Below, piece by piece: positions 25,252-38,449 of a DNA stretch of 64,000 nucleotides. Numbering within the stretch: position 1 is the first letter of the stretch; every line of letters starts with the position of its first letter. A program made the translations under genes and the position numbers. Origin of the DNA: Candidatus Daviesbacteria bacterium (lineage in GTDB: Bacteria; Patescibacteriota; Microgenomatia; Daviesbacterales; UBA10151); assembly GCA_028715175.1 (NCBI GenBank), contig JAQUSJ010000002.1:22285-86284 (forward strand), given 5' to 3'. Below the pieces are notes generated by a model. It searched no databases and was not told the origin of the DNA. It worked only from the letters and a program-made list of their open reading frames with translations.

Positions 25252-25761
25252 ATGACTCGGCAAGACTTTGAAGAAGTAGTAAAAATTATCGGTGATGACC
25301 CGAAGTATCGCCATTTTATTGACAGAATAAAAAAAGATTTTGATGACAGTGAACATAAAGGCATTCCGGTTGCCATGCATGCTTATTTCATAAAAGAAGG
25401 GAAAGAAAGTATTGGTTTTTGTATTTTATCGCTATCCCCTCTTAAGATGAGGCGATGGGAAAAAACATTTATAGAAGAAGATTGGAAAACGCAAAATTTT
25501 CAGATTGATATTTCATCTTTTGAACTAATGTATCTGTACATTAAACCTGAATTTAGAAGAAAAGGAAAAGCTACCCAGTTATTTAATAAAGTTATCAAAC
25601 GTTCCAAAGTTTTGGGCATTAAATCAATTTATGCTTATGTAAGCGATACAGACAATGCGGCGCTGGAATTCTACCGCAAGAGCGGAGCAAAAATTATCCA
25701 TGATTTTTCCGATGAAACAGAAGGAATAAGCGCAGCTTTTATGGTATGGAAGTTGGAATAA
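25252..25761 (+). CDS. GNAT-family N-acetyltransferase
   Basis: 'RRKGKATQLFNKVI' acetyl-CoA-binding motif A region. Confidence 0.65.
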   Translation: MTRQDFEEVVKIIGDDPKYRHFIDRIKKDFDDSEHKGIPVAMHAYFIKEGKESIGFCILSLSPLKMRRWEKTFIEEDWKTQNFQIDISSFELMYLYIKPEFRRKGKATQLFNKVIKRSKVLGIKSIYAYVSDTDNAALEFYRKSGAKIIHDFSDETEGISAAFMVWKLE

Positions 25762-25776
25762 AGGGGTTGAACCCCT
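25762..25776. repeat. 15-bp palindrome AGGGGTTGAACCCCT (REP-like), copy 1
   Basis: Exact match, located between convergent genes. Confidence 0.8.
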
Positions 25777-25782
25777 AAAACG

Positions 25783-26292
25783 CTACTTTAAGGAGGCCAA
25801 GGTAGCCCTAGTTTTGATATCTTTGAGGGTTTTACCAACAGATCCAGTTGTAGCATGATCAGCGATAGGTTCGTCCCAGACCCCGCCGGCAATATTTGCT
25901 ATATCGGTAGCAGAAATAGCCACTCCAGCAGTTAAAGAGCTAGAAGAAACGATAGATTTTATAGTAACTTGATAATCCCCCAAAACACTTGTGAAAGGGC
26001 TTGTCTCATCGTCAGTGATGAGATTTCCGGCCACTGTCAAAGTATGATCAGCCTCCTGTGGCCTGATCTTCCAGCCGTATCTCAACACGATATAAGGAGA
26101 GATGACCTGTCCGCCTCCAATTGCCTGTCCGCCAATGGCCATTATAGGAAACCTAAATTTATTCATTAAAGGATCTGATAACCAATCTTCTTTGGCGTCC
26201 GAATATAAATCCACCACCACATCAAAGGAAGTTACCCCAGTGTTTAGGATAAATAACTTATTATTGGTATCATAAGTCATTTTTTGAGCCAT
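25783..26292 (-). CDS. hypothetical protein (169 aa); its N-terminal domain is paralogous to that of the 26871-28460 protein
   Basis: Shared motif 'YS..KE(D/E)W..D....NKF(R/K)FPI'; no signal peptide. Confidence 0.5.
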   Translation of the reverse strand: MAQKMTYDTNNKLFILNTGVTSFDVVVDLYSDAKEDWLSDPLMNKFRFPIMAIGGQAIGGGQVISPYIVLRYGWKIRPQEADHTLTVAGNLITDDETSPFTSVLGDYQVTIKSIVSSSSLTAGVAISATDIANIAGGVWDEPIADHATTGSVGKTLKDIKTRATLASLK

Positions 26293-26371
26293 TTGCTGTA
26301 ATTTTTAGCAGAAAAAAATCAATTAATCAACCGATAAAAAGAAAGTCTAAAAATATCAAACTATTCCTAAG

Positions 26372-26899
26372 TTATTTCAACCTGTCCCAAAAGCTTACTT
26401 TTTTGGATTGTTTCCTATTTTCCTGGACTTCTTCTTGTAAATCATTTTTAACCTGTTTGGTTTCGGCTGGAACCGGTACTTCCTCTTGAGGCGGGATTTC
26501 TTCCGGAGCCGCTTGCTGTTTTTTCTTTGCCTCCTGTACTTTCTCTGACAGCTTATTAGTTAAAAATTTCTTTTCTTTAGGAAGTTCTTTAGCCTCTTCT
26601 TTTAAGATTTTGTTCCAGTCGCTGTAAATGCTGGAGGTTCTTTTAACTACTACTAGAGGCGATTTTTCGTCTACATCCCACGTCTTGGCAAACATATTCC
26701 ATCCGCCAAAGTCCTCCTGTTGTTCCATATGTTCCTTGATTCTGTCGACGAAACTCATCAGGCCGGTTTCTTCCCTTGTGGCTTTATTGCCTCCTTCTAT
26801 CTCGGTTTGGAGTCGGAAGCAGAGGTAGCGGATTTGGCGTCTGGTGAGGTCCTCGTTTTTAGTCATTTTTTTAGGTTGGATTAGAGTAGTTCCTTTCAT
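26372..26899 (-). CDS. hypothetical charged protein (175 aa)
   Basis: ORF only; Lys/Glu-rich C-terminus. Confidence 0.4.
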   Translation of the reverse strand: MKGTTLIQPKKMTKNEDLTRRQIRYLCFRLQTEIEGGNKATREETGLMSFVDRIKEHMEQQEDFGGWNMFAKTWDVDEKSPLVVVKRTSSIYSDWNKILKEEAKELPKEKKFLTNKLSEKVQEAKKKQQAAPEEIPPQEEVPVPAETKQVKNDLQEEVQENRKQSKKVSFWDRLK

Positions 26900-28460
26900 C
26901 GTCAGCGTTGACCGTAATTGTCTGTCCGGTAGCGCGGGTAATGGTGTAAGTGGCCATCACCCAGGTAGCTCCGTTCAAGCCCTGCGCCACAATAGTTACA
27001 CCCGCATCGGTTCCTGCCGTGCGGCCACCCTGCACATTGTTGTCATAGTCGAAATCAAAGGCGATACTTGAAGCCGTAATCTGTCCGGTAATATCCGCAG
27101 AGGAGTTGTTCTTCACAATAATGGCAGAAGATGAATCAAAGTTACCGCCGGGATTAGTGGTAAAGTACATAGTGTATTTTGTATCAGCATCCGGTTCTGA
27201 AACTAAGTTAGAGCTAAAGTTCATATTACCAGCTGCAACGAACGGAAATGCCCGTTCTGTTGAAGTAACAGGAAGTCCGGTATTTGCATTTACTCCGCCT
27301 CCATCTACTGTAATATCACGGAATTTTATTGAGTTGGTCGAGTTGGTATTGAAACCGCTGATGTATAGTCCGCCTTTTGTCTTTAACGTATCACCAACGT
27401 ATTCCAGCAAAAGTTCAGCGACATTACCTTTCTCAACTAATCCACTTCGTTGATTAACTGTCGTTGAATCGTTAGCATTTATATCAGTAGTTTTACGAAG
27501 TTGTCTTTGTGCCCAGTTATAAATTTGTGTGTCTGTTCCATTATTAGCAGTAAGCAAACGGTTAAAAGCGTAATAGTTAGAACCAATTTGAACTTCTCCG
27601 TCGTAAGCTACCCAATCAGTTACACCAATATCCGTTGCTCGAGTTGCGCCGTTTGATGTTCCTCCGGCTGCTGTAAAGAACCAACGTCCGGTGTCATCTT
27701 TTACTACCGAAGCGGCGGGATAAACTGTGCTGTTTGCATAAGTAGTGAAACCCTTACCCTTTAGATAGTTTATCTTCATGCCGTTATAGGGTGGTGAGGC
27801 AGCGTCAAGGGTAGCATCGGCAATTGTAATTTTTAAATCGGTTGAGTTGGATAGAGGTAATTTGTAAAGAACTGGCTCTAAAGCTGAAATAGATTGTTCT
27901 GTTAATAGATTATATTCCGCATATAATTTACCTGTGCCGGAACCTGAAGCAATACGCAGAAACAGCTTTAAGTAGCCTGTGTAGTCTACCGGGCCGGTGG
28001 CGTTATAGATCATGATGGCCTCGTTTAGGTTTCCGGTTTTATTAAAGTTAGTGACACTTTGGTTATAGCCGATGATATTTTGGTAGGTGGCTTGGTCAGT
28101 GGAGGCGTCAAAGTTCCCTAGGGAAACGATACCGGCGTATTTATCTCCGGTGATTTCTTCCCAGCCGGCATCCCTGATGACATTTCTGGTAGTGGCGTCT
28201 GTCCAATCCCAACCATTAATCAGAATGCCATCAGTTTTGGTAAACATCTTGATTGGGAACTTGAACTTATTGAGGGCAGCATCAGTTTTCCACTCTTCCT
28301 TCAGGAAGGAGTAAACTGCCTGGAGGGTAACACCGGAAGTTGAACCTGGGGAGGCGTTACTTACATTACCGGTAGTAATGATCTGGATTTTTTTTGTCGT
28401 CGTATTAATAACGACATCAGTAGTTTGGGCTAGTCCGTCTGGGTCAACAATTTTTGCCAT
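26871..28460 (-). CDS. hypothetical large Gly/Thr/Asn-rich beta-structure protein (529 aa), no signal peptide; fibre / tailspike-like
   Basis: N-terminal domain paralogous to the 25783 protein; C-terminal motif '...NYSNPT' shared with the next gene. Confidence 0.5.
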   Translation of the reverse strand: MAKIVDPDGLAQTTDVVINTTTKKIQIITTGNVSNASPGSTSGVTLQAVYSFLKEEWKTDAALNKFKFPIKMFTKTDGILINGWDWTDATTRNVIRDAGWEEITGDKYAGIVSLGNFDASTDQATYQNIIGYNQSVTNFNKTGNLNEAIMIYNATGPVDYTGYLKLFLRIASGSGTGKLYAEYNLLTEQSISALEPVLYKLPLSNSTDLKITIADATLDAASPPYNGMKINYLKGKGFTTYANSTVYPAASVVKDDTGRWFFTAAGGTSNGATRATDIGVTDWVAYDGEVQIGSNYYAFNRLLTANNGTDTQIYNWAQRQLRKTTDINANDSTTVNQRSGLVEKGNVAELLLEYVGDTLKTKGGLYISGFNTNSTNSIKFRDITVDGGGVNANTGLPVTSTERAFPFVAAGNMNFSSNLVSEPDADTKYTMYFTTNPGGNFDSSSAIIVKNNSSADITGQITASSIAFDFDYDNNVQGGRTAGTDAGVTIVAQGLNGATWVMATYTITRATGQTITVNADDERNYSNPT

Positions 28461-28521
28461 AATTTCTCTTTATATTAATAATTGTCATAATTTAAACAAC
28501 TAGTCAATATATCAAATTTTT

Positions 28522-28567
28522 AGGGGTTGAACCCCTAAAGCCTTTAAAAACCTTTAGGGGTTTGAGT
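28522..28567. repeat. AGGGGTTGAACCCCT palindrome (copy 2) joined to a second hairpin CCCCTAAAG-N-CTTTAGGGG
   Basis: Sequence 'taggggttgaacccctaaagcctttaaaaacctttaggggtttgag'. Confidence 0.75.
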
Positions 28568-30137
28568 AGAAGGGATCAGTATCCAGCTGGACAGTTAAGG
28601 TGGTGTTTGAACTTGGGAGGGCGTAGTTATTAACTGTTTTAGATTGATAACCAGTAACATTATGAATATTGATATAAGTAGTAGTTCCTGCGCCGGAAGA
28701 ATAAGAATAAGTAGTAGAACCGTCGGTGATATTGTCTTCTGTAAAAAGAACTGATTCATCAGACGCTTTCACCACAGTCACCTCACAGTTTGCAGTTACT
28801 GCATTTCCATCGGCATCAACAATATTAATGATTAAATTTACCGAACTGGCCACCGTGGTAGTTGCCCCTGTTCCGTTACGATAAGAAATTACTCCACTCC
28901 CGCCTGAATAGTTAATAATAACCTCTCCGCTGGAATTATTATAGATAACCTCATTGCCGGTTGAACCATTGGAGGCGGCGTAACCAGTAAAGGTGTTGCC
29001 GGAGAATGAATATGTTCCGGCAGTATTTATCTCTATGGCATGATTTGAACCATCAGAAACAAAAGTGCAATTGGAAATATTGGTCAGGTTATTAGATAAG
29101 ATTGAAGCTGATGCTGTTGAATTTTCAAACCTGCAACCAGTGAATACCGCTCCGCCTTGAGTAACTAAGCCGCACCTGCGAAAAATAGTTGTGAGGATTG
29201 TTGAGTTAGACTGGAATACAAAAGTGTCCATATCGCTAAAGGTGCAGGTATCGAAGTTAACATCGGCATTATCGGTAACAGTAAGTTTGCCCTTGGAAGT
29301 CGTTCCTAAAGCGGTGATTTGGATATTTGTCCAATCAATCCTGCTGCTGGCATTTCTAATTTCAAACTCATTAAATCCCGATGTGACTCTGATGGTATCT
29401 TGAATAGTGATGGTCCTATTTGAATCCCTAAAATCAACTGCTGTTCCTGAAGTTCCCATTAAAAATAAACCTTGCTGAAGATATCCGCCAGCAATGACTT
29501 GGAAAAGTCCCCATCGATTATAGCCGTCCGTGGCATCATTGGCATCGTTTTTAGTTGCTGCTCCGGCAAAAGTAGCATAATTACTTGTTTCTCCACCTGT
29601 GACTTGTAAAAGTCTACCAAAGCGGATAGCATCAGTTCCAAATGGATTTCCTTTAGAAATAGTCACTAAGGTTTTAGCAACAGTGCCGAAATATTGTAAC
29701 GTTGAAGTAGGCGAGCCTTGAGTTGCCTGACTGGATACTGAAGGGTCAACAGCAACACAGAACCAGCCACCATAAGTATATGTATTGCTACCTTTGACAT
29801 ACCAAGCATTATAATTGCTTGAATCACTTCCCACGATAACACGAAGTCCTCCGTTTGCCTGCGAATCCAGAGTATTGGGACAGGCAAAAAATATCCAGAC
29901 AAAAACTGCAGCCGGGCTGGTAATTGTTTGTGGCGAGGCGGCAAGCGTTCCCATTCCGCCGATACCTCCGCCAGCAATAGCCATTGTTTTAGAAAAGCAA
30001 TATGACTTTTGAATAAAATAATCAGTTTCTGCCGAAGGCACACCTCCTCCTGTTGCTCCAGCAGGCTCACCCCAGGTTTCACCGCTTTCAGCCTCGACAA
30101 TATTTGTTAAATCTGTAGTATAACTAGGTGTTGCCAT
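28554..30137 (-). CDS. right-handed beta-helix repeat protein (527 aa), no signal peptide; tailspike / adhesin-like
   Basis: Repeated 'N(C/T)TF..G' and 'GNTFTG' beta-helix rungs; C-terminal '...FYSNP'. Confidence 0.5.
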   Translation of the reverse strand: MATPSYTTDLTNIVEAESGETWGEPAGATGGGVPSAETDYFIQKSYCFSKTMAIAGGGIGGMGTLAASPQTITSPAAVFVWIFFACPNTLDSQANGGLRVIVGSDSSNYNAWYVKGSNTYTYGGWFCVAVDPSVSSQATQGSPTSTLQYFGTVAKTLVTISKGNPFGTDAIRFGRLLQVTGGETSNYATFAGAATKNDANDATDGYNRWGLFQVIAGGYLQQGLFLMGTSGTAVDFRDSNRTITIQDTIRVTSGFNEFEIRNASSRIDWTNIQITALGTTSKGKLTVTDNADVNFDTCTFSDMDTFVFQSNSTILTTIFRRCGLVTQGGAVFTGCRFENSTASASILSNNLTNISNCTFVSDGSNHAIEINTAGTYSFSGNTFTGYAASNGSTGNEVIYNNSSGEVIINYSGGSGVISYRNGTGATTTVASSVNLIINIVDADGNAVTANCEVTVVKASDESVLFTEDNITDGSTTYSYSSGAGTTTYINIHNVTGYQSKTVNNYALPSSNTTLTVQLDTDPFYSNP

Positions 30138-30143
30138 AATTTT

Positions 30144-30167
30144 AGGGATTCAATTCAACCCCTAATG
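30144..30167. repeat. degenerate copy of the GGGG...CCCC palindrome (TTAGGGATTCAATTCAACCCCTAA)
   Basis: TTAGGG / CCCTAA arms immediately downstream of the RAYT-like gene. Confidence 0.5.
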
Positions 30168-30812
30168 TTCGATAATTACATTTTTAATTTTATGCAATTC
30201 TTTTGCATAATCTATCTGGTCTTCATGAAATGATTTCATTGCCTCCTGTGAAGGAAAATAGGATAATATCTCATTTTTGGAACAGCTAAATTCTGTATCT
30301 TTTCCTAGATAATCAGGATAACTTGACCAGGAATAATTATCCGGATTTTGAGTAAGTTCGGAAGAAACAGGATTTAAGTGAATATATCTGACAAGATGAA
30401 CAAATAAATTATCCGAAATCACAGAAACAGCTTTAAATCTACCCTGCATTAGCCCTCCAACTCTTTTATATTTTTGATTAAAAAAAAGAGTATAAGCATT
30501 GGTGATTTGCTTCATAAGTTTGGATATACCATTCTTGGTTTTTTGCTTAAGTAACAGGTGAAAGTGATTCGGCATGAGGCAGTATGCTATTAACTCTACT
30601 TCTTCAGATAAATTTTTGCTATATAGGCGCAAAGGTAAATCTGGATATTTTTTTAATACTTCTTTAAGAGGCCGGAGGTAAATAAAAAGGTATGCTTGGA
30701 AGAAATGATAATCTTTATCATCCAAAAAAATATCCCTTTTTTCTACGCCCCTGTTAAAAACATGATAATAAGAGTCTTCTGTGAAGCTTCTCACAACATA
30801 CTTGGATGGCAT
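30162..30812 (-). CDS. HuH-Y1 transposase of the IS200/IS605 TnpA superfamily, REP-associated tyrosine transposase (RAYT)-like
   Basis: HuH motif 'NHFHLL' and catalytic-Tyr motif 'YIHLNPV' (compare E. coli RayT 'HMHCIW' and 'YIYINPV'); flanked on both sides by the GGGGTTGAACCCC palindrome. Confidence 0.7.
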   Translation of the reverse strand: MPSKYVVRSFTEDSYYHVFNRGVEKRDIFLDDKDYHFFQAYLFIYLRPLKEVLKKYPDLPLRLYSKNLSEEVELIAYCLMPNHFHLLLKQKTKNGISKLMKQITNAYTLFFNQKYKRVGGLMQGRFKAVSVISDNLFVHLVRYIHLNPVSSELTQNPDNYSWSSYPDYLGKDTEFSCSKNEILSYFPSQEAMKSFHEDQIDYAKELHKIKNVIIEH

Positions 30813-30846
30813 AGAAACAGCTTATCATACTTTATCGAAGAAATAA

Positions 30847-30861
30847 AGGGGTTGAACCCCT
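30847..30861. repeat. AGGGGTTGAACCCCT palindrome, copy 4 (extended palindrome AAATAAAGGGG-TTGAA-CCCCTTTTATTT)
   Basis: Exact match, immediately upstream of the RAYT-like gene. Confidence 0.8.
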
Positions 30862-30869
30862 TTTATTTA

Positions 30870-31337
30870 TTATAAATCGTCGTTATCTTCTTTAGTAAAA
30901 GCATCATAGGGACCTTCTGTAAGGCTTTTATGAGCTTTCTTGGTAAACCCGATTAGTATATAAATAATTGCCGGAATAAGCAGTATCGCTCCGGTAAGAG
31001 CAAGCGAAATGGACCACTCAAGCGGAATTACTCTGGAATTTGAGGCCACATCCTGCAGGGCATAAAGTTGAATTAATGCTGCCAGAACAAAAAGAATTGC
31101 TCCTTTTGTCAATTTGCTAAGGTGTAAAAATGATAAAAACCAAAGCGGGGCCATAATCAGAGCAATACTTTTAATAATGATAGAGGTGGTGGTAAAAGTG
31201 TATTTTGATAAGATGTCGGGATCAAAAAAGTGGTATGGGGTTGCAAGCCTAAGCTTTAAAGGATTAACCACGGCATCAAGTACATAGGCAAAAATCAAAA
31301 GCCCTATTATGATAACCAGAATATATTCCTGTTTCAT
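30870..31337 (-). CDS. hypothetical polytopic membrane protein (155 aa)
   Basis: Four predicted TM helices. Confidence 0.45.
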   Translation of the reverse strand: MKQEYILVIIIGLLIFAYVLDAVVNPLKLRLATPYHFFDPDILSKYTFTTTSIIIKSIALIMAPLWFLSFLHLSKLTKGAILFVLAALIQLYALQDVASNSRVIPLEWSISLALTGAILLIPAIIYILIGFTKKAHKSLTEGPYDAFTKEDNDDL

Positions 31338-31340
31338 CGT

Positions 31341-32180
31341 TTAATCAAAGATAGCATCGAAGTAGCCATAAGTCAAATCTTTACGTTTTGGCCAGCCAGT
31401 ATCCGCATCAGTAAAGCCTGATGCCCCTTTTTTATATCTATAGTTTCCAGAACCGTCATCCTTCATGATAAACCAGGCCCCATCTTTATTAAGATAGCCA
31501 AAGTAAGTGTTGGGAGCATCGGAAGTTTCATCCATCTGGGTAATTTTGTAACCGTCGGTAGGTTGTTTCTGTGCAGGATTAATTTGTACACCACTAATAT
31601 CTTTTAAGGCAACAGTTCCCGGTCCTGGCACACTGCCAAAAAAGGCTGCCTGGGCTTTTTTGGCAAATATGGAAAATAAGAATAAAGATAATCCAGCCGC
31701 ACTGATAAGTTTAAGAAACTGTCTTCTGTCAACATCTATCCTTGGAAGCTTTGTTGGTTCATCTTCATGTTTAACTTTTCTTTTAAGTTGTTTTAGTTTC
31801 TTTGGTTCAAGTATGATAGCGGGAATATTAATAGCCTGTCTTTTCTTAGGCAGTACTTGTAGAATAAAGTAGCCCGCAAGAGGTAAAAAGATAATACCAC
31901 TTATCATCTGGGAGATATTTTTGGCTCCAACCAGACCGCTGATAGTCATAATTGCTACAACAATAAAGCCATAGTAAAGATCCAAAGTGCTTAATGGTTT
32001 TTGAAATGGAAATGAAAAACGGTAACCATTTATCTTTCCCAAGAATAAACTAAGAAAATAAACAGTTATTGGAAGGAAAAGTACCAAGGGAATAACCGAG
32101 GCTGTTTGGGCGCTGAATGCTGCGCCAAGTGTGAGTAAAATAACCAGCAATAGACAGTAATAAAAAAGCAGATTTTTCAT
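31341..32180 (-). CDS. hypothetical membrane protein with an internal twin-arginine-like motif (DRRQFLKLISAAG...AQA) and a C-terminal extracytoplasmic domain
   Basis: N-terminal TM bundle, then an 'RRQFLK' h-region ending 'AQAA', then a ~100-aa domain. Confidence 0.45.
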   Translation of the reverse strand: MKNLLFYYCLLLVILLTLGAAFSAQTASVIPLVLFLPITVYFLSLFLGKINGYRFSFPFQKPLSTLDLYYGFIVVAIMTISGLVGAKNISQMISGIIFLPLAGYFILQVLPKKRQAINIPAIILEPKKLKQLKRKVKHEDEPTKLPRIDVDRRQFLKLISAAGLSLFLFSIFAKKAQAAFFGSVPGPGTVALKDISGVQINPAQKQPTDGYKITQMDETSDAPNTYFGYLNKDGAWFIMKDDGSGNYRYKKGASGFTDADTGWPKRKDLTYGYFDAIFD

Positions 32181-32692
32181 TCTTTAGGCCCGCTATCCGC
32201 TACTTCCTTCAGAAACCTTCCAGCTACCCATCCGTTGGTTTCTGTTTTTGGTAAAACAATTTGATACCAACTCCCCTCTTTTTTAAGATAGCGGTAAACT
32301 TTATCAAATTCGATTTTACCGATTACTTTGGAAGAATAAGAATTGCTTTCATAAACATCTACACTTTGCCATTTTTTATCATTGATGGTAACAAAGCCGG
32401 ATAGAATTTTGGAGCTGTCTGATGCCTCTTTGCTGCTGCCCAACACCTTTGTGCCTACAGTGTTAGTCGTTTCCGGTTTTAAACTATCCACTTTTTGGTC
32501 GGTTTCTTTTTGCGACTGCTGATAGGCTGCGATTTTTCCCAATTCCTGTTTCAAATTGTTAATAGCGCTTTCGGCTTTTTTATTTTGTTCCGCAGTACCC
32601 CTTATCGATGTAAAGGTAATAATGAGCAGAATTGTTGTTACCGAAGCTGTATATATTATTAGTAATCTAATTAGCTTTTGCATAAGTATCAA
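32177..32692 (-). CDS. membrane-anchored protein with a C-terminal bacterial SH3-like domain
   Basis: N-terminal TM helix; coiled coil; 'GWVAGRFL' SH3b-like C-terminus. Confidence 0.45.
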   Translation of the reverse strand: MILMQKLIRLLIIYTASVTTILLIITFTSIRGTAEQNKKAESAINNLKQELGKIAAYQQSQKETDQKVDSLKPETTNTVGTKVLGSSKEASDSSKILSGFVTINDKKWQSVDVYESNSYSSKVIGKIEFDKVYRYLKKEGSWYQIVLPKTETNGWVAGRFLKEVADSGPKE

Positions 32693-32701
32693 AATATTAT
32701 A

Positions 32702-33124
32702 TCAGACAATATTGCTGACGAATGTTCCAAAAAGGTTATGCCAGTAGCTAAAACTTAATATTTGTATAATACCCTTTTTTTGCATTAAAGTAGCGTTCAT
32801 CGCCTCCCTTAGGGCGATTTGACGGTCCCTGTTTACCCTGAGCATCCTATGAATAGTAATCAAATCAGCCTTTTGAGGCAGAAGAATTTCTATATCCGAT
32901 TGAAGGCTAGCCTGCAGGAAATCCAAAGCCACGGATTGACCAATTTCTCTGCTAAGTGCTACATAGGTTTCAACTACATTCTGATAGCTTGTATAAAGCT
33001 GATAACCTAACCTGGCCAGATTCTCCATGGATTGAACTGCCTTTTGATGGTTTGTATCGGACCGGTCAATAAAACTTACCAGAACCGAAGAATCAATAAA
33101 AATTTTTCTGCTTTGAATAGCCAT
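32702..33124 (-). CDS. PIN-domain protein (VapC-like toxin)
   Basis: 'IFIDSSVLV' N-terminal PIN motif with conserved acidic residues. Confidence 0.65.
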   Translation of the reverse strand: MAIQSRKIFIDSSVLVSFIDRSDTNHQKAVQSMENLARLGYQLYTSYQNVVETYVALSREIGQSVALDFLQASLQSDIEILLPQKADLITIHRMLRVNRDRQIALREAMNATLMQKKGIIQILSFSYWHNLFGTFVSNIV

Positions 33125-33213
33125 AATTAGTTATTAGTACGCTCGCTTCGCTCGCTGGTAGTTCATAGTTCATAGTATTTTCTACGAGCTACCAACTCAT
33201 AACTACGAGCTCA

Positions 33214-33495
33214 TTACGAACTTTCTAGCTTGCTCATATTCATTCCTATTCCTTTAAGCCTTAAAAGTGGATCGTTAAAATTAAATGTTTTGGTTTGGAT
33301 TGCAGTTTGAACTCTAACTTGTTTGGTATGTGGAATAAAATCCTGGGTAAAAGCTCGTAGATCATTTAGAGCTATTCTGACATTTCCACCTACCCGGACG
33401 GCTTTTAACTTACCTTCTTTGATGTAGCGCCTTACTGTTAAAGGATGTACTTTTAATGCTATAGCTGCCTGATTAACAGTATAAAATTCTTCCAT
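33214..33495 (-). CDS. excisionase-family / MerR-like HTH DNA-binding protein (putative antitoxin partner of the PIN protein)
   Basis: 'LKVHPLTVRRYIKEGKLKAVRVGGNVRI' HTH_17-type motif. Confidence 0.6.
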   Translation of the reverse strand: MEEFYTVNQAAIALKVHPLTVRRYIKEGKLKAVRVGGNVRIALNDLRAFTQDFIPHTKQVRVQTAIQTKTFNFNDPLLRLKGIGMNMSKLESS

Positions 33496-33590
33496 AGTCT
33501 ATTATGTAATCTTATACAAGTATATACATAGATATACATAACTTGTCAAGTGTTGACATTATATGAAATATTGTAGAACAATGAATTCAT

Positions 33591-33626
33591 ACTAGTTTTT
33601 AGAAATATTTGTCTGCTAAAACTAGT
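33591..33626. promoter_or_regulatory. inverted repeat ACTAGTTTTTAG-N13-CTAAAACTAGT in the tatA 5' region
   Basis: Hairpin / operator-like structure 25 nt upstream of the tatA ATG. Confidence 0.3.
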
Positions 33627-33650
33627 CAGAAGGAAGGGGGGTGATTTTGC

Positions 33651-33797
33651 ATGTTAAGTGGCATAGGCACAACTGAAATTGTTGTCGTAGGCCTGATCTT
33701 ATTGGTCTTATTCGGCGGCAAGAAACTACCCGAACTCGCAAGAGGTATGGGAAGCTCTATAAAAGAATTCCGAAAAGCAGCCAATGAGGATGCTTAA
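33651..33797 (+). CDS. tatA: twin-arginine translocase subunit TatA (48 aa; below the ORF-track size cut-off)
   Basis: '[43 protein letters not shown]'; SD-like 'aggaagggggg' upstream. Confidence 0.75.
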   Translation: MLSGIGTTEIVVVGLILLVLFGGKKLPELARGMGSSIKEFRKAANEDA

Positions 33798-33802
33798 ATC
33801 TT

Positions 33803-36800
33803 ATGGTAACTGCCCAATTTGCAAAAAAGGCATATTTGGCAATTATTCTAACTGTTGCAGCCTTAGTGTTTGTCAAAAGCACTGAGGCTGCTTCAGGTAA
33901 TACCCAAGTATGCAGTCCAGGTAGTAGCTGCAGTGTTGGAGAGTTCCTTTATGATGATTCTTATTCCCCAATTACTACTGCAACATGTACTATCACCAGC
34001 CGTTATCCTGACGAAACTCTATTTTTGGACTCGGTAGCAATGACCTCATCGACGAAAAATGACGGTTGGTACTCTAAAGATTTTACAGCACCTGCTACTA
34101 CCGGAATATATAGAACCCAAGTCTGCTGTACTCCTCTCGGCGGTGATAAACTTTGCCTGGATAAGACTTTTGAAGTCAAAACAGAGTCAACTTTAACTTC
34201 CGGTGACGTAACAAGTGCTGTTTGGGATACCACCAGAAGTGCCCATATTTCTTCCGGCAGTTTTGGTGAAGCACTTGTAAACGCGGTGCCTTCGGTCAAT
34301 GATGTTGCCGGTGCTGTTTGGGGATATTCCGGCAGAACCCTGAGCACCTTTGGCAGTTTAATTACCGATATCTGGACTAACCCAACCAGAACATTGAGCG
34401 GTTTTGGCACTTTAGTTGCCGATGTCTGGGCAAACGCCACCAGGACTTTAACAGGAGCTACCCTTTCAAGTGGATCTTTAGCCACCAAAAGCAATGTTGA
34501 TTCGGTTGCATCCGATGTCAGTAGTACCAAATCTGATGTCACTACTGTCAAAAGCGACGTCAGCACTATCAAATCCGATGTATCCGATCTTAAAACAGAT
34601 ATTTCCAGTCTCAAGAGTACATCAAGCACAACCAACATTACCAATATCCAAAACACTACCAACACAACCAATAATTTACTTGAACAGCTTATTAACAGGC
34701 CAATTATTGAGAATGAATTAGAAGAAAGTAATGTTACCACTACGGAATTGCAAACCAAACTTGAAAAATCCGACAGCCTGGCAAACCAGCTATTGACTTC
34801 CAGCGGATATGTCAAAAGCAAAACCAGTTTACTCAAAGCCAGGTGGAATAGCTTGGGGGAAGATGAGATTACAAAATCTTTGGGCCAGCTTGAGGCTGTA
34901 GTAGGCAAAGAAGATGAAACATCAGAGGCAAATTCTATATTCGGCCAATTAAATTGGATTACCGGGCAATGGGATTTACCCATCTCCTCTAAATTGTATG
35001 TTCAAAATAAAAAAATTGCCTTATCGCTCAAGAAAGTAAATTCGGCTCAACAGCTTAAGGTTTTGTCATCAGATTTGGATAATTTTATTAAATTGGTGGG
35101 TACTCAAAGCGATAGCCCAAAATCAAACACTTTGTTTGGTGCTCTAAAAGGTCAAAAAGAGCTTTTGTCCTTTCTTGATAGAAATTATACGGATGCAACT
35201 ACGTTGCTGTCAGATCTTACAAAAAATTCCAAGCCCCAAACAGACCTGGTAGGACAAATAAACAGCTTAAGCAAACAGGTTGCAACAGTAAACCAGTTGC
35301 CAAAGATGAATAAAACCATTTTAGCGGAGGCGGCTAATACTAAAATGGATCAAAAACAGCTTAAAAACAAAGCCCTTAGTTTAAGAGGGGTCGTTCAAGC
35401 AAACAGGCAATTACTTGCTCAAGGTCCAAATCAGCCTTTAAGCAGTCTGTGGCTGGAAGAAGGAAGCATTGTTTTTAAAACTCTAATCAGTAATCCTTCC
35501 AAATCAATCAGCCAAAAGATTCCACTTAAATATTATCTGCCAAAAGAAGTGACAAAAGAGAATATTACCAAAACGGACGAAGGATTAACTGTAAACTATG
35601 ATATGGAAAAAGACCAATATTTTGTCAGTGGAAATTTCACCATTGATCCAGGAGAAACCAAAACTCTTGCTGTAACTGTTGATGATTCTGCATTTTACAT
35701 AAATGATGCTGAAATCGCCACCATGCGCAAACAAGTAGAAGAATTATCAAAACCTCTTAATAATACTGCCTATTTTGCCCAGGGGGTAACTCTCAAAACC
35801 GATATAGATGCTTCTTTGGATAAAGTGGACAGTTTGCAAAAAAATAATACTACACCTGAGGCAAGAATCCGAAGCTACAGGGAAGCTCAAATTGAGTATA
35901 AGGTAGCCAAGGAAAAGCTGGAAAAATTAAAAGAGTTGGCTACCAGCGCCGGTTCTGTGGGCACATTATTTGGTTTTGTAGGTGGAGCGCAAACTTTGGC
36001 AGTTTGGGGATTAATCATTATCATGACAGCCGGATTTGTATTTTTAGCCTTATATATGCGCACTTTAAAGACAAACGAGCTTTACTTGGACCAAAGAAAC
36101 CAAAAACTTACTCCGATTGTAGACAGTTTTGAAAATTATGAAGAAACTCTAAATGAGGAAAAACCTCAACCTCTCCTCCACCCTAAAAAAAGATTTTATT
36201 TGGGCAAGCCAGTTCATTTAGCAGTAGTTATCATAGCAGTATGTATTATAGGAGGCGGCAGTGTATATGCCCTTGGGACTCTACGACAGAGACAAGTAAG
36301 GCATGAGATTGCACAAACAACTCCTCAAGGAGTGCTGGGAAGTTCTAACGAAAATATTGCTTCGGATTCATCCCGATTAGATCAGGATTCATACAGAGAG
36401 GTAACTATTCTGGTGCCGGATGACAGCACAGTAACTATACAATCCCAACCTTCCATAAACTCGCCTGTTTTAACCTCTTTAAAGGCCTCAAAAAAGGCAA
36501 AAGAGATCAAGCGAGAGGATATCTGGGTAAAAGTAGCTTTGCAAGATTCTGAAGCTAAATTTATTGAAGGCTGGGTAGATGGGGATTTTGTGGAAGAGGT
36601 TGAAAAGAAACAAAGCTTAGATTCTGATGAAGAACAAAAACCGCAAGGCGGTTTATTAGAAAACCAAAAAATAGTGGTTATAAATAATACTCCCACTGGA
36701 TTTTTAAGAGTCAGGAAGACGCCCGAGGGTGAAGAAATTACCAAGATAAGTCCGGGAGAACAGTATAATTTAGTTAAAGAAACGATAGGATGGGTGCAGA

Positions 36801-36856
36801 TTGTTTTGGAAGACGGTACTTCGGGCTGGGTATCCAAACAATATATCAGCTTCTAG
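33803..36856 (+). CDS. large secreted / membrane-anchored surface protein (1017 aa) with a Sec signal peptide, tandem peptide repeats, coiled coils, two C-proximal TM helices and two C-terminal SH3b-like domains
   Basis: Signal peptide 'AILTVAALVFVKSTEA'; ~16-aa 'TRTLSGFGTLV' repeats; 8-aa 'SDVSxxKS' repeats (24-bp DNA tandems at ~34497-34620); 'GWVQIVLEDGTSGWV' SH3b. Confidence 0.7.
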   Translation: MVTAQFAKKAYLAIILTVAALVFVKSTEAASGNTQVCSPGSSCSVGEFLYDDSYSPITTATCTITSRYPDETLFLDSVAMTSSTKNDGWYSKDFTAPATTGIYRTQVCCTPLGGDKLCLDKTFEVKTESTLTSGDVTSAVWDTTRSAHISSGSFGEALVNAVPSVNDVAGAVWGYSGRTLSTFGSLITDIWTNPTRTLSGFGTLVADVWANATRTLTGATLSSGSLATKSNVDSVASDVSSTKSDVTTVKSDVSTIKSDVSDLKTDISSLKSTSSTTNITNIQNTTNTTNNLLEQLINRPIIENELEESNVTTTELQTKLEKSDSLANQLLTSSGYVKSKTSLLKARWNSLGEDEITKSLGQLEAVVGKEDETSEANSIFGQLNWITGQWDLPISSKLYVQNKKIALSLKKVNSAQQLKVLSSDLDNFIKLVGTQSDSPKSNTLFGALKGQKELLSFLDRNYTDATTLLSDLTKNSKPQTDLVGQINSLSKQVATVNQLPKMNKTILAEAANTKMDQKQLKNKALSLRGVVQANRQLLAQGPNQPLSSLWLEEGSIVFKTLISNPSKSISQKIPLKYYLPKEVTKENITKTDEGLTVNYDMEKDQYFVSGNFTIDPGETKTLAVTVDDSAFYINDAEIATMRKQVEELSKPLNNTAYFAQGVTLKTDIDASLDKVDSLQKNNTTPEARIRSYREAQIEYKVAKEKLEKLKELATSAGSVGTLFGFVGGAQTLAVWGLIIIMTAGFVFLALYMRTLKTNELYLDQRNQKLTPIVDSFENYEETLNEEKPQPLLHPKKRFYLGKPVHLAVVIIAVCIIGGGSVYALGTLRQRQVRHEIAQTTPQGVLGSSNENIASDSSRLDQDSYREVTILVPDDSTVTIQSQPSINSPVLTSLKASKKAKEIKREDIWVKVALQDSEAKFIEGWVDGDFVEEVEKKQSLDSDEEQKPQGGLLENQKIVVINNTPTGFLRVRKTPEGEEITKISPGEQYNLVKETIGWVQIVLEDGTSGWVSKQYISF

Positions 36857-36859
36857 CTT

Positions 36860-36874
36860 AGGGGTTCAACCCCT
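36860..36874. repeat. AGGGGTTCAACCCCT palindrome, copy 5 (opposite orientation of the centre base)
   Basis: Exact match 4 nt after the stop of the 1017-aa gene. Confidence 0.8.
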
Positions 36875-37262
36875 AAATGAATGTGTTGTAAAAGTAATGT
36901 ATCGACATTGCCACAACCACTCCAATCAACAGAAACCACTTATGCTTAAAGGTAGAAATAAGCATTATAAACATAGTCAGACTATGTAAAATACTAGTCA
37001 GAATAAATCTTGTAAGTAAAGTTGAAAGATCTCCTACCAAGGCTATATTTAAGGTGTAAAGAACGGTTTCGGAAAAGGTAAATAGTAAAGCGGCTGCCAA
37101 AACAACTTTGACTTGTATATTCCTCCTGGCACAATCTATAGCAAAAAATACCAAAAAGCCTTTCACTATTTCCTCAATAATATAAGGATAAGGCAGCAAA
37201 AGCTCGATAGGCCAGATAATAAACGGAGTAATAGCAGCTACTAACGGAATCAAAAAAGACAT
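36873..37262 (-). CDS. small polytopic membrane protein, possibly CPBP-family (CAAX protease-like)
   Basis: 'EEIVKG', '...LHS', 'HYFYN' are spaced like CPBP motifs 1-3; a weak call. Confidence 0.35.
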   Translation of the reverse strand: MSFLIPLVAAITPFIIWPIELLLPYPYIIEEIVKGFLVFFAIDCARRNIQVKVVLAAALLFTFSETVLYTLNIALVGDLSTLLTRFILTSILHSLTMFIMLISTFKHKWFLLIGVVVAMSIHYFYNTFI

Positions 37263-37420
37263 TACTCTTTAGAATCGTCTTTACCTTGCAAGGCTTTTCT
37301 TAGTTCTCTGATCGCTTCTCCTAAACCTTTAGCAAATTCGGGAAGTTTTTTCCCGCCAAAAATAAGCAGTATAACAGCAGCAATAATTAATATTTCTGTT
37401 AATCCGATACCTCTAAACAT
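37262..37420 (-). CDS. tatA: twin-arginine translocase subunit TatA paralog (52 aa; not in the ORF track)
   Basis: Reverse translation '[52 protein letters not shown]'; SD 'aaggaggctgct' precedes the ATG. Confidence 0.7.
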
Positions 37421-37440
37421 AGCAGCCTCCTTTCTTTAAG

Positions 37441-38190
37441 TTACAACAAATGAGACTTCAAAACGTATCTATTTAATAATAGGGTAAGTTCAAAAAGAAG
37501 TGCAAGTGGCAAAAACAACAGCACCAAAGATAAAAGATCGGTTGGGGGTAAAAGCGCTGCAAAAATTAAAGATAATATGTAAACGAGAAGACGTTTTTTT
37601 ACAATAGCATGATATTTAAGAATTTTCAGTTTCATTAAAATTGTTAAGACAACTGGAAATTCAAATGCCAGTCCCATTAACAAAGCGGTAGTCAAAATTT
37701 GGGAAAGCAGTTTGCTGATATCCAGCAAATTGCCAATATTAAGTTCAACCGATTTCTGGAAGAAAATAATTACCACATATTTCATAATTAATACTCCAAA
37801 AATGAATCCGGATATAAAAAGAAGGAGGGTAATTGGCAACAGGGCCAATACGGCTTTATATTCGGATCTACGAAGGGCTGGTTTTAAAAAGCTTAAAATT
37901 TGAAAAATAACAATGGGTAAAATGGCAATAAATCCAACCAGTAAAGCCGAGTCAACAGCCAGAGTGAAGAATTGAAAAGGAGAAGTAAAAACTATGTTTA
38001 CGCCTTTAAGGTCGAAAATTCTCAAAACGAAACGGATTATGTTTTCATAATATATAAAACCAACTACGGCACAGATTATAAAAACTGATAAAGTAAAAAT
38101 TAGCCTTTTTCTAATCTCTGAAAAAAAGGGTGAATATTTAATGATTGTGGAGTCTAAATCTCCTGTTATCGAAGCTTCAGATGCCATCAT
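37441..38190 (-). CDS. tatC: twin-arginine translocase subunit TatC (start taken at 'MMASE...'; the ORF-track start is 38244)
   Basis: 'FSEIRKRLIF' N-terminal TatC motif and six TM helices. Confidence 0.8.
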   Translation of the reverse strand: MMASEASITGDLDSTIIKYSPFFSEIRKRLIFTLSVFIICAVVGFIYYENIIRFVLRIFDLKGVNIVFTSPFQFFTLAVDSALLVGFIAILPIVIFQILSFLKPALRRSEYKAVLALLPITLLLFISGFIFGVLIMKYVVIIFFQKSVELNIGNLLDISKLLSQILTTALLMGLAFEFPVVLTILMKLKILKYHAIVKKRLLVYILSLIFAALLPPTDLLSLVLLFLPLALLFELTLLLNRYVLKSHLL

Positions 38191-38449
38191 CTTCTGCCTT
38201 CTTCTCGATATCAAAAGTTCTTTTAATATTTTTATTGGTTTCATCCGTTGCGCTTATAATTTCCTTCTTGGCTTTCTCTAATTCTTTATCTGTTTCATCG
38301 ATTGCATTGCTGAACTCTTTTTTTGCCTTTTTCAATTCTCTCCCCGCTTCCCCAAGTCCCTTAGCCCATTCGGTCAGCTTTTTACTGCCAAAAAGGAAAA
38401 GTATAATCAGAGCGATGATTAGTATTTCTTTAGATCCTAAGTTAAACAT
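38177..38449 (-). CDS. tatB: TatA/TatB-family protein (90 aa)
   Basis: 'FNLGSKEILIIALIILFLFGSKKLTEWAKGLGEAGRELKKA' followed by a charged tail. Confidence 0.7.
   Translation of the reverse strand: MFNLGSKEILIIALIILFLFGSKKLTEWAKGLGEAGRELKKAKKEFSNAIDETDKELEKAKKEIISATDETNKNIKRTFDIEKKAEDDGI

Follow-up and report, generated by a model that had tools for sequence, protein, structure and literature searches.

What does a bacterium do with the proteins of a phage head appendage when the rest of the phage is nowhere near? The question is raised by a cassette of four genes in a genome of Candidatus Daviesbacteria, a member of the candidate phyla radiation (CPR), within a stretch of 64,000 nucleotides (assembly GCA_028715175.1, contig JAQUSJ010000002.1, positions 22,285 to 86,284 of the forward strand) that is called the window here and whose own numbering is used throughout. 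The cassette consists of four consecutive open reading frames (ORFs) on the minus strand, coding for proteins of 527, 529, 175 and 169 aa (Table 1), and the database records of these exact proteins are hypothetical proteins from a Candidatus Daviesbacteria metagenome-assembled genome (MAG). A preliminary description of the window had placed the 169-, 529- and 527-aa ORFs exactly where they are found and had missed the fourth conserved gene, that of the 175-aa protein.

The four genes form a single module of phage origin – a head/neck virion appendage of the type represented by gp53, gp54 and gp55 of the cyanophage Syn5 – and this part of the interpretation is firm. That the cassette in the window is a stand-alone resident and not a prophage is well supported. 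The least certain part is its cellular function: the best explanation, for which we would put the case at about even, is that of an exapted phage head-appendage cassette serving as an envelope-associated fibre. The absence of other phage genes beside it, in a conserved cell-envelope locus, suggests that the bacterium has put part of a virus's architecture to uses of its own.

Relationships within the cassette

None of the four proteins is matched by Pfam or PHROG models, and sequence profile searches of the PDB found no relative of them. Within the cassette, they are connected by two elements. The first is an N-terminal domain of ~100-120 aa (LYSxxKExW..D..LxKFxFP) in the 529- and 169-aa proteins, with the stretch noticed in the preliminary description being identical at 15 of 32 positions (BLASTP E 1e-6); the likeness is limited to about 32-120 aa, and the same domain-level match is seen again among homologues at other loci. 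The second is a peptide at the extreme C-terminus of the 529- and 527-aa proteins, [DE]RxYxNP, which follows an immunoglobulin (Ig)-like domain and is predicted to be disordered. First described as a common ...YSNP ending, it is a family signature rather than a chance resemblance and recurs in Syn5 (gp53 ends in LERNYSNP, gp54 in LDRQYNNPV) as well as in Virus Rctr197k (LERNYSNP in Rctr197k_178, FDRNYANP in Rctr197k_179), as comparison of the sequences showed. In AlphaFold2 (AF2) models of the 529- and 527-aa proteins, built from input alignments of 47 sequences, these tails are kept across relatives yet predicted to be disordered.

Apart from this ending, the 527- and 529-aa proteins have nothing in common (BLASTP E 0.42), which rules out true paralogy between them; 'paralogous', the word first applied to the block, is too strong for proteins that share just one domain and one motif.

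Homology to Syn5 proteins

The 529-aa protein matches the Syn5 'structural protein' gp53 from end to end, with 32% identity over residues 1-528 (100% coverage, E 4e-53 by tblastn against GenBank phages; E 5e-65 by blastp against the gp53 ORF). The match takes in both the N-terminal motif and the C-terminal ERNYSNP, which are near-invariant columns in the alignment of the 529-aa family. Other phage matches by tblastn were S-TIP28, Maribacter phage Panino and Virus Rctr197k. The AF2 model – with a predicted local distance difference test score (pLDDT) of 89, falling below 50 in the tail – is a string of β-rich domains, for which neither the PDB nor BFVD held a convincing fold match.

The 169-aa protein corresponds to the N-terminal ~116 aa of Syn5 gp55, with 39% identity across 116 aa (tblastn E 2e-5, blastp E 8e-14). 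The gp55-like family counts 2131 cluster representatives at 50% identity, and its ~120-aa domain, where matched, stands at the N-terminus of proteins 84-1276 aa long. The ~35-aa unit that forms the C-terminal part of the 169-aa protein is present in up to 18 copies in long members of the family, which have no Pfam match. This 'VWD..H..GS.G..L' unit also bears a weak likeness to 'AVWDTTRSAHISSGSFGEAL' and the subsequent 'VW...RTL' repeats of a neighbouring, signal-peptide-bearing SH3 protein of 1017 aa (repeat region ~34175-34280, residues ~125-158); the E-value is only 0.011, and the likeness was not used as evidence.

For the 527-aa protein, homology to Syn5 is partial. A tblastn search gave no Syn5 match, and no whole-length homology to gp54 was found; when a profile of the 527-aa family (47 homologues) was aligned with gp54 by hhalign, only the last 86 residues matched (probability 95%, E 2e-8). 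The family consensus nevertheless shows the Ig-like domain of the gp54 C-terminus, closed by DRxYxNP, whereas the body of the protein, with its jelly-roll-like and β-helix-like parts, is unrelated to that of gp54. Homologues number more than 1000 in the CPR; their C-terminal 180-240 aa are conserved between genomes, while unrelated and often longer sequence takes the place of the N-terminal part. The AF2 model (pLDDT 92) is all-β, with short repeated strands or rungs at residues 230-420. Its best Foldseek match, a GH87 β-helix enzyme (E 1e-4), superposes poorly as a whole (template modelling score 0.17); domain matches are jelly-roll or carbohydrate-binding module (CBM)-like at the N-terminus and CnaB/Ig-like at the C-terminus, and the middle, to which the GH87 match belongs, weakly matches the Klebsiella phage fibre Kp9 gp42 (probability 0.33). 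A related phage protein also has a weak match to the Pfam family Beta_helix. A β-helix fold of the 527-aa protein is plausible at most.

Adjacency of the genes is another point of likeness between the window and Syn5. Their order differs, being 54-53-x-55 in the window and 53-54-55 in Syn5, a phage in which nothing homologous to the 175-aa protein turned up.

The module among phage head and neck genes

The homologues gp53, gp54 and gp55 are encoded side by side in Syn5, and three adjacent genes of Virus Rctr197k match the 529-, 527- and 169-aa proteins. A scan of IMG/VR with a profile of the 529-aa family returned 28 viral loci, 24 of them with all four gene types; wherever they are present, the gp53-like, small-partner and gp55-like genes follow the order of the window, and over all four genes the order is mostly the same. 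ORFs of six viral loci include members of the TerL, portal, major head protein, head protease and tape-measure families. In a myovirus carrier, the module is followed directly by a neck gene of the T4 gp13 type and by the sheath gene, while a Multivoradales prophage has TerL, portal, module and head–tail adaptor in that order. Contigs of 142-165 kb that carry the module also encode a phage virion protein, DnaB, the DNA polymerase III (Pol III) alpha subunit and thymidylate synthase.

Phages with every type of tail carry the module, be they podo-, sipho-, myo- or jumbo-type, and it is found amid head and neck genes; it therefore fits a head/neck appendage and not a tail fibre. Of the Syn5 homologues, gp53 and gp54 are reported horn proteins. 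The third, gp55, has been assigned to the capsid knob (Gipson et al. 2014, PMC4102127), and the annotated tail fibre of Syn5 is a separate gene, gp46. The preliminary description had proposed phage tail fibres or tailspikes: a phage virion appendage is indeed what the homology to gp53, gp54 and gp55 supports, but its placement on the tail finds no support, given the head/neck gene setting and the separate gp46. An injection structure, also considered there, has left no sign, since sheath, tube and baseplate genes were not detected in the window.

The reading of the cassette as genuine tail fibres or tailspikes, or as a surface protein of the S-layer or of a housekeeping kind, is thus largely refuted and very improbable. 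The cassette does share with tail fibres and tailspikes a conserved attachment part (the gp55-like N-terminal domain and the C-terminus of the 527-aa protein) joined to a variable distal part, a tip that is β-helix-like and, downstream, a small partner gene resembling a fibre-assembly protein; the 527-aa protein, with β-helix-like and jelly-roll parts, is built like a receptor-binding protein, and besides the Klebsiella phage tail fibre it weakly matches Sulfolobus SlaB in Foldseek. However, the cassette proteins match no tail-fibre family by sequence or profile and no SLH or S-layer family in Pfam or PHROG, they lack signal peptides and are sporadically distributed, and the anchor of the tip protein has reversed polarity, being C-terminal.

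Several carriers stand close to the window in sequence. Loci L001, L054, L055 and L022/L053, on contigs of 142-165 kb with phage or phage-like content, have copies of the 529-aa protein that are 60-70% identical to that of the window, and their contigs are candidates for CPR phages. The other genes on these contigs include those for an intein-containing Pol III alpha, LAGLIDADG and RtcB proteins, or else for a sheath and a T4 gp13-like protein; a 37-kb contig with collagen and HNH genes carries a 529-aa copy as well. In Candidatus Multivoradales, two near-identical module prophages (L016 and L017, on contigs of 2.1 and 4.5 Mb) lie ~12-47 kb from the contig ends; the assembly may have been interrupted by such a repeat.

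The small partner and its tail

The 175-aa protein has a core with the motif LTRRxIRYxCFR...GW..F...WD. As listed, its ORF runs 29 nt into the end of the 529-aa gene (26871-26899); because the alignment of homologues points there, the real start is likely to be M12, at about 26866, which would abolish the overlap. Within the core, 'TRRQIRY' was ruled out as a twin-arginine translocation (Tat) signal, as no hydrophobic region comes after it. Homologues follow the gp53-like gene at 15 of 16 CPR loci and 24 of 28 viral loci.

The C-terminus sets chromosomal copies apart. All those in chromosomal context – eight distinct loci and the window – have a K/E/P-rich linker and a terminal tail, in the forms KKxSFWDKLK, KKGFWKILS and KGFLGKLLS, while none of the copies in independently confirmed phage context ends in such a tail; those at L019 and L022/L053 have a like motif ~10 aa before the end. 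MinD and FtsA end in amphipathic sequences that target them to the membrane, the MinD tail being KGFLKRLFGG. By its sequence, the chromosomal tail resembles these membrane-targeting sequences: it is short, basic and hydrophobic, and it likewise follows a flexible linker and closes the C-terminus, although the small protein that bears it is unrelated to MinD and FtsA and comes from phages. The chromosome-specific extension shows signs of being a derived, host-side adaptation.

A resident of the chromosome

The Pfam families around the cassette are those of a cellular chromosome segment: MreB, penicillin-binding proteins, FtsA, MreC, PilB/PilC, DprA, ArgRS, L1, L11, NusG, def/fmt and pyrimidine genes, with further flanking matches to TatC, a PrsW-like protease, SH3 proteins, a PIN/helix-turn-helix (HTH) pair and a GH1 enzyme. 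In agreement with the preliminary description, Pfam scans of the window, the wider of which covered the best 25 of 61 families, brought up no family of capsids, portals, terminases or integrases, and with the same coverage no tail or lysis genes were found among the flanking genes by Pfam and PHROG. Phage genes were not found beside the cassette at syntenic loci either, the complete Woesebacteria chromosome included, when these were mapped by BLAST to the genes of the window, and capsid, portal and terminase genes were not detected within +/-10 kb of any chromosomal locus. Conservation of the block in position, with no phage-like neighbours, had been named beforehand as an outcome that would refute the preliminary reading. 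It is what Daviesbacteria and Woesebacteria present, and the cassette is therefore not a prophage but a resident, selected, phage-derived cassette.

Two routes of recent arrival were ruled out. Integration at a tRNA or att-type site is not in evidence, with the nearest tRNAs 8 and 7 kb off and only short palindromes repeated; recent foreign DNA is not indicated by composition, as base composition is near that of the host, with GC and third-position GC (GC3) of the cassette ~1 standard deviation (SD) above the window mean (up to 2 SD for GC3). The cassette genes are under purifying selection: the ratio of non-synonymous to synonymous substitution rates (dN/dS) is 0.08-0.16, as computable for four of ten gene pairs, dS being saturated for most, and the four ORFs are intact in at least ten genomes of two orders.

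The descent of the cassette departs from that of its surroundings. The 529-aa protein of the window is 78% identical to Woesebacteria copies and 66-69% to other Daviesbacteria copies, and the proteins of two neighbouring genes – a 279-aa membrane protein (m279) and Y1_Tnp – show the opposite affinity. In a neighbour-joining tree, the chromosomal copies form three groups, with phage copies in between, and are thus polyphyletic, which indicates exchange of the cassette.

These results bear on two alternatives. Under the first, the cassette would be a prophage remnant or moron without host function, re-introduced by phage recombination at a hot spot beside conserved genes. The family is primarily viral, only 14 loci turned up among species-representative genomes (in a pattern-limited scan), the gene trees disagree with those of neighbouring genes, and a gene resembling REP-associated tyrosine transposases (RAYT; REP, repetitive extragenic palindromic) and REP-like palindromes enclose the Daviesbacteria cassette, all of which such a remnant would explain. 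Yet it leaves the intact ORFs and the dN/dS values unaccounted for, as it does the lack of any other phage gene alongside in any of those genomes, the chromosome-specific extension of the 175-aa protein and the host-like base composition; we consider it unlikely.

The second alternative is that the cassette is the remote locus of a particle akin to a gene transfer agent (GTA) or defective phage, supplying head fibres for capsids encoded elsewhere. The Rhodobacter GTA, for its part, has its head-spike genes at a site outside the main cluster. The module is head-associated in phages and would need a capsid, and missing export signals are consistent with release by lysis; but no capsid, portal or terminase gene was detected in the 64-kb window or within +/-10 kb of the chromosomal loci, and the predicted membrane-targeting tail and the membrane-protein neighbours would go unexplained, which makes this a distinctly improbable reading.

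Chromosomal setting

Upstream of the cassette lies a triad of genes for membrane proteins (Table 1), for which PHROGs gave no match. In the window, in Woesebacteria and in other Daviesbacteria alike, the cassette invariably comes after this triad, and in most cases next to tatA/tatC. The 155-aa protein, also without a Pfam match, is syntenic in the examined loci that carry the m279 family. The Tat motif of the latter (DRRxFLK...AxA) is invariant in 12 aligned homologues; its position after two to four transmembrane segments is an unusual topology for a Tat substrate. The m279 family has 593 homologues, all from Microgenomates, with a distant relative in Zambryskibacteria, and was not found in IMG/VR viral contigs.

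Table 1. Features of the cassette and its surroundings (window positions)
Feature	Position	Strand	Remarks
Palindrome AATAAAGGGGTTGAACCCCT, REP/terminator-like	25757-25776	.	after the stop of the 169-aa gene
169-aa Syn5 gp55-like protein	25783-26292	-	N-terminal ~120-aa anchor-type domain and one fibre repeat
~35-aa 'VWD..H..GS.G..L' fibre repeat of 169-aa protein	25813-25920	-	single copy
Anchor-type domain motif of 169-aa protein	26143-26238	-	
175-aa small partner	26372-26899	-	conserved ~90-aa core, K/E/P-rich linker, amphipathic tail
KKVSFWDRLK tail of 175-aa protein	26375-26404	-	amphipathic, C-terminal
529-aa core/shaft protein	26871-28460	-	full-length Syn5 gp53 homologue
ERNYSNPT tail of 529-aa protein	26874-26897	-	C-terminal, predicted disordered
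N-terminal domain motif of 529-aa protein	28251-28346	-	
Palindrome, same	28517-28536	.	after the 527-aa stop, then promoter-like site for the 529-175-169 unit
527-aa 'tip' protein	28554-30137	-	jelly-roll/CBM-like N-terminus, β-helix-like middle, Ig/CnaB-like C-terminus
DPFYSNP ending of 527-aa protein	28557-28577	-	
Y1_Tnp (IS200/RAYT-like)	30162-30812	-	PF01797, E 3e-10
Palindrome, identical 20 nt	30842-30861	.	between 155-aa gene and Y1_Tnp
155-aa membrane protein	30870-31337	-	about four transmembrane segments predicted from sequence, charged C-terminus
279-aa membrane protein (m279)	31341-32180	-	2-4 transmembrane segments, twin-arginine signal, ~100-aa exported domain
Tat signal of m279 (DxDRRQFLK...AQA)	31647-31736	-	
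171-aa protein (p171)	32177-32692	-	N-terminal transmembrane segment and SH3_3 (Pfam E 7e-8); first triad gene
tatC	37441-38244	-	Pfam TatC, E 6e-41
tatA-like ORF	within 38177-38449	-	

The preliminary description had noted PilB and PilC on one side of the block and the Y1_Tnp gene on the other, and both are there. A tie to the type IV pilus cluster is ruled out, as the adjacency is not conserved: six relatives (L003, L005, L008, L011, L013 and L018) carry the tat genes directly downstream of the cassette instead. In Woesebacteria – three metagenomic contigs and the complete chromosome CP066686.1 – the order is p171, m279, 155-aa protein, 527, 529, 175, 169, TatA, TatC, PrsW-like protease and giant SH3 protein, and Daviesbacteria locus L011 has the same order with Y1_Tnp inside the block. 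None of the cellular neighbours is present in the viral loci examined. Four further loci (L008, L009, L012 and L018) come from MAGs titled 'uncultured Gammaproteobacteria bacterium' and show the same synteny with 44-78% identity to the window; these are evidently mislabelled CPR genomes.

Relative to L011 and Woesebacteria, the window has two blocks swapped, the eight genes from SH3 to the 169-aa protein and the block tatA-tatC-PrsW-giant SH3-HTH-PIN standing in the order Y-X rather than X-Y; palindromes lie near the junctions of this permutation (25783-38449).

Other genomes with the triad carry a different, 'type B' cassette at the same site (L050-L052 and L056), distantly similar to the first and likewise of phage type. 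It combines a protein that joins a 527-type N-terminal domain to a different C-terminus, a protein of ~810-977 aa whose N-terminus resembles the shared cassette domain, and a small protein ending in KKKSFWNKLTS; L056 has a 3159-aa repeat protein at the cassette site instead. In Zambryskibacteria (Parcubacteria, L071/72), an m279-like protein with a Tat signal, a type B-like set and TatC/TatA occur together in a housekeeping context. The ~810-aa type B protein is also encoded on 13 IMG/VR contigs (L058-L070; 49-54% identity), some of 350-450 kb, and on 12 of the 13 its gene adjoins a 527-type gene. PHROGs gave no match for the type B proteins.

Palindromes and the Y1_Tnp gene

The palindromes that were said to bound the block exist: identical 20-mers (the first and the last palindrome of Table 1) enclose Y1_Tnp and the four cassette genes. 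The GC-rich core AGGGGTTGAACCCCT, AGGGGTT(G/C)AACCCCT, has four copies in the 64-kb window against 0.01 expected (25762-25776, 28522-28536, 30847-30861 and 36860-36874), all within 11 kb and all at gene 3′ ends, and the sites score as bidirectional terminators. Palindromes at the same gene ends are confined to Daviesbacteria-like loci (L009-L012), and at L009 they flank Y1 directly. The position of Y1_Tnp differs among genomes (L003/5, L008, L009, L011 and L012).

A Y1_Tnp gene with identical GC-rich palindromes nearby fits REP/RAYT elements; by way of difference, the palindromes of the window are terminator-like, are also found where transcription units end, and amount to only four copies in 64 kb. 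No evidence was found that they move the cassette.

A possible envelope fibre

How might such a cassette serve the cell? The shared N-terminal domain and the disordered C-terminal peptide would be the docking interfaces of a fibre, of which the 529-aa protein may be the core, the 527-aa protein an exchangeable ligand-binding tip and the 169-aa protein a second anchor or branch subunit, with the 175-aa protein as assembly or tether factor. Through its MinD-like amphipathic helix, the last of these could bring the signal-less subunits to the membrane. There, the membrane triad and the Tat system would anchor them or carry them out, with the 279-aa Tat substrate as a possible vehicle for 'hitch-hiking'. 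A swappable tip would set binding specificity, and the cell would use the product as an envelope fibre or adhesin. The host locus is made up of conserved CPR envelope genes: those for an SH3 protein, the Tat-signal and the four-transmembrane-segment membrane proteins, tatA/tatC, the PrsW-like protease and the giant SH3 protein.

Several observations weigh against this use. No cassette protein has a Sec or Tat signal: a sequence scan found no hydrophobic N-terminal or transmembrane segment in any of the four, in agreement with the preliminary description, and hitch-hiking of the fibre is speculation. At three type B loci (L050, L052 and L056), the tat genes are not adjacent. The tree is no arbiter, as polyphyly suits repeated re-seeding by phages as well as exaptation. 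Even the structural starting point has its uncertainties: gp53 and gp54 are the horn proteins that Raytcheva and co-workers reportedly described for Syn5 in 2014. In the case of gp55, the assignment to the knob is based on density and secondary structure only (PMC4102127). A pattern scan of 185,579 species genomes, limited by the pattern used, recovered only 14 type A loci, sporadic in the CPR, which cautions against a general CPR feature. Lastly, AbiE, Fic, PIN and AAA_14/DUF4143 genes gather at the locus across relatives, and the locus may be a variable or defence island beside conserved anchor genes. AbiEii/AbiEi pairs stand between cassette genes in Woesebacteria (L003-L005) and at L051, where there are three pairs, and in the window the PIN/HTH_17 pair (32702-33495) adjoins the triad.

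Such company raises the alternative of anti-phage interference, in which membrane-tethered host copies would bind or poison the maturing capsids of CPR phages that bear the same module, or exclude these phages. It would explain why AbiE pairs, Fic, PIN/HTH and AAA_14/DUF4143 genes are so frequent here, why the tree intermingles chromosomal copies with those of phages and why export signals are missing from a set whose small subunit would, by prediction, attach to the membrane from inside; phages with 60-70% identical copies (L001, L054, L055 and L022) exist as potential targets. On the other hand, 78-80% conservation between Daviesbacteria and Woesebacteria (529- and 169-aa proteins) with stable synteny is atypical of defence genes, all four genes are kept, including a diversifying tip for which an intracellular decoy has no need, and no match to a known defence family was obtained, PADLOC not having been searched. 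The probability that we attach to interference is low.

The envelope fibre can also be framed more widely: that Microgenomates, and with a variant cassette Parcubacteria, exapted horn-type cassettes as cell-surface fibres, with a MinD-like-tailed partner, export by way of envelope proteins and TatAC, and tips swapped with phages. In this full form, the proposal is tentative and, on present evidence, rather doubtful.

Relation to known domesticated phage parts

Domesticated phage modules include the tailocins (R- and F-pyocins), the extracellular contractile injection systems (eCIS) such as PVC, the type VI secretion system (T6SS) and the GTAs with separately encoded head spikes. Common to these and the cassette are phage structural genes kept under purifying selection in the absence of a complete phage, and an exchangeable receptor-binding part that recombines with phage genes. 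The former go back to tails or to whole particles and have retained capsid genes or those for sheath, tube and baseplate, whereas the cassette has appendage proteins only, and no lysis cassette is evident here. It differs likewise from its Syn5 counterpart in being chromosomal, placed by membrane and Tat genes without capsid, tail or packaging genes, and in having what looks like a membrane-targeting tail on its small subunit. No literature linking Patescibacteria with Syn5-type proteins was found, and as a stand-alone, envelope-linked and host-modified cassette it is new among domestications of phage parts.

Implications

The Syn5 horn proteins, hitherto treated as the oddities of one cyanophage, appear here as one case of a widespread and strongly conserved four-gene head/neck module in phages of many hosts, and the two recognisable elements that probably serve in docking make its assembly testable. 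Contigs bearing the module also provide candidate CPR phages, which are otherwise hard to identify.

For the bacteria themselves, the matter is one of attachment. CPR bacteria rely on attachment to other cells, with surface structures that are mostly unknown, and the cassette is a concrete candidate for one of these or, alternatively, for a new kind of phage–host interface. If the envelope fibre is real, the range of domesticated phage parts – so far tails and whole particles – would extend to head appendages, with this cassette as the first of its kind and with a new route of fibre export; exchange of tips with phage genes would then retune what the episymbiont sticks to.

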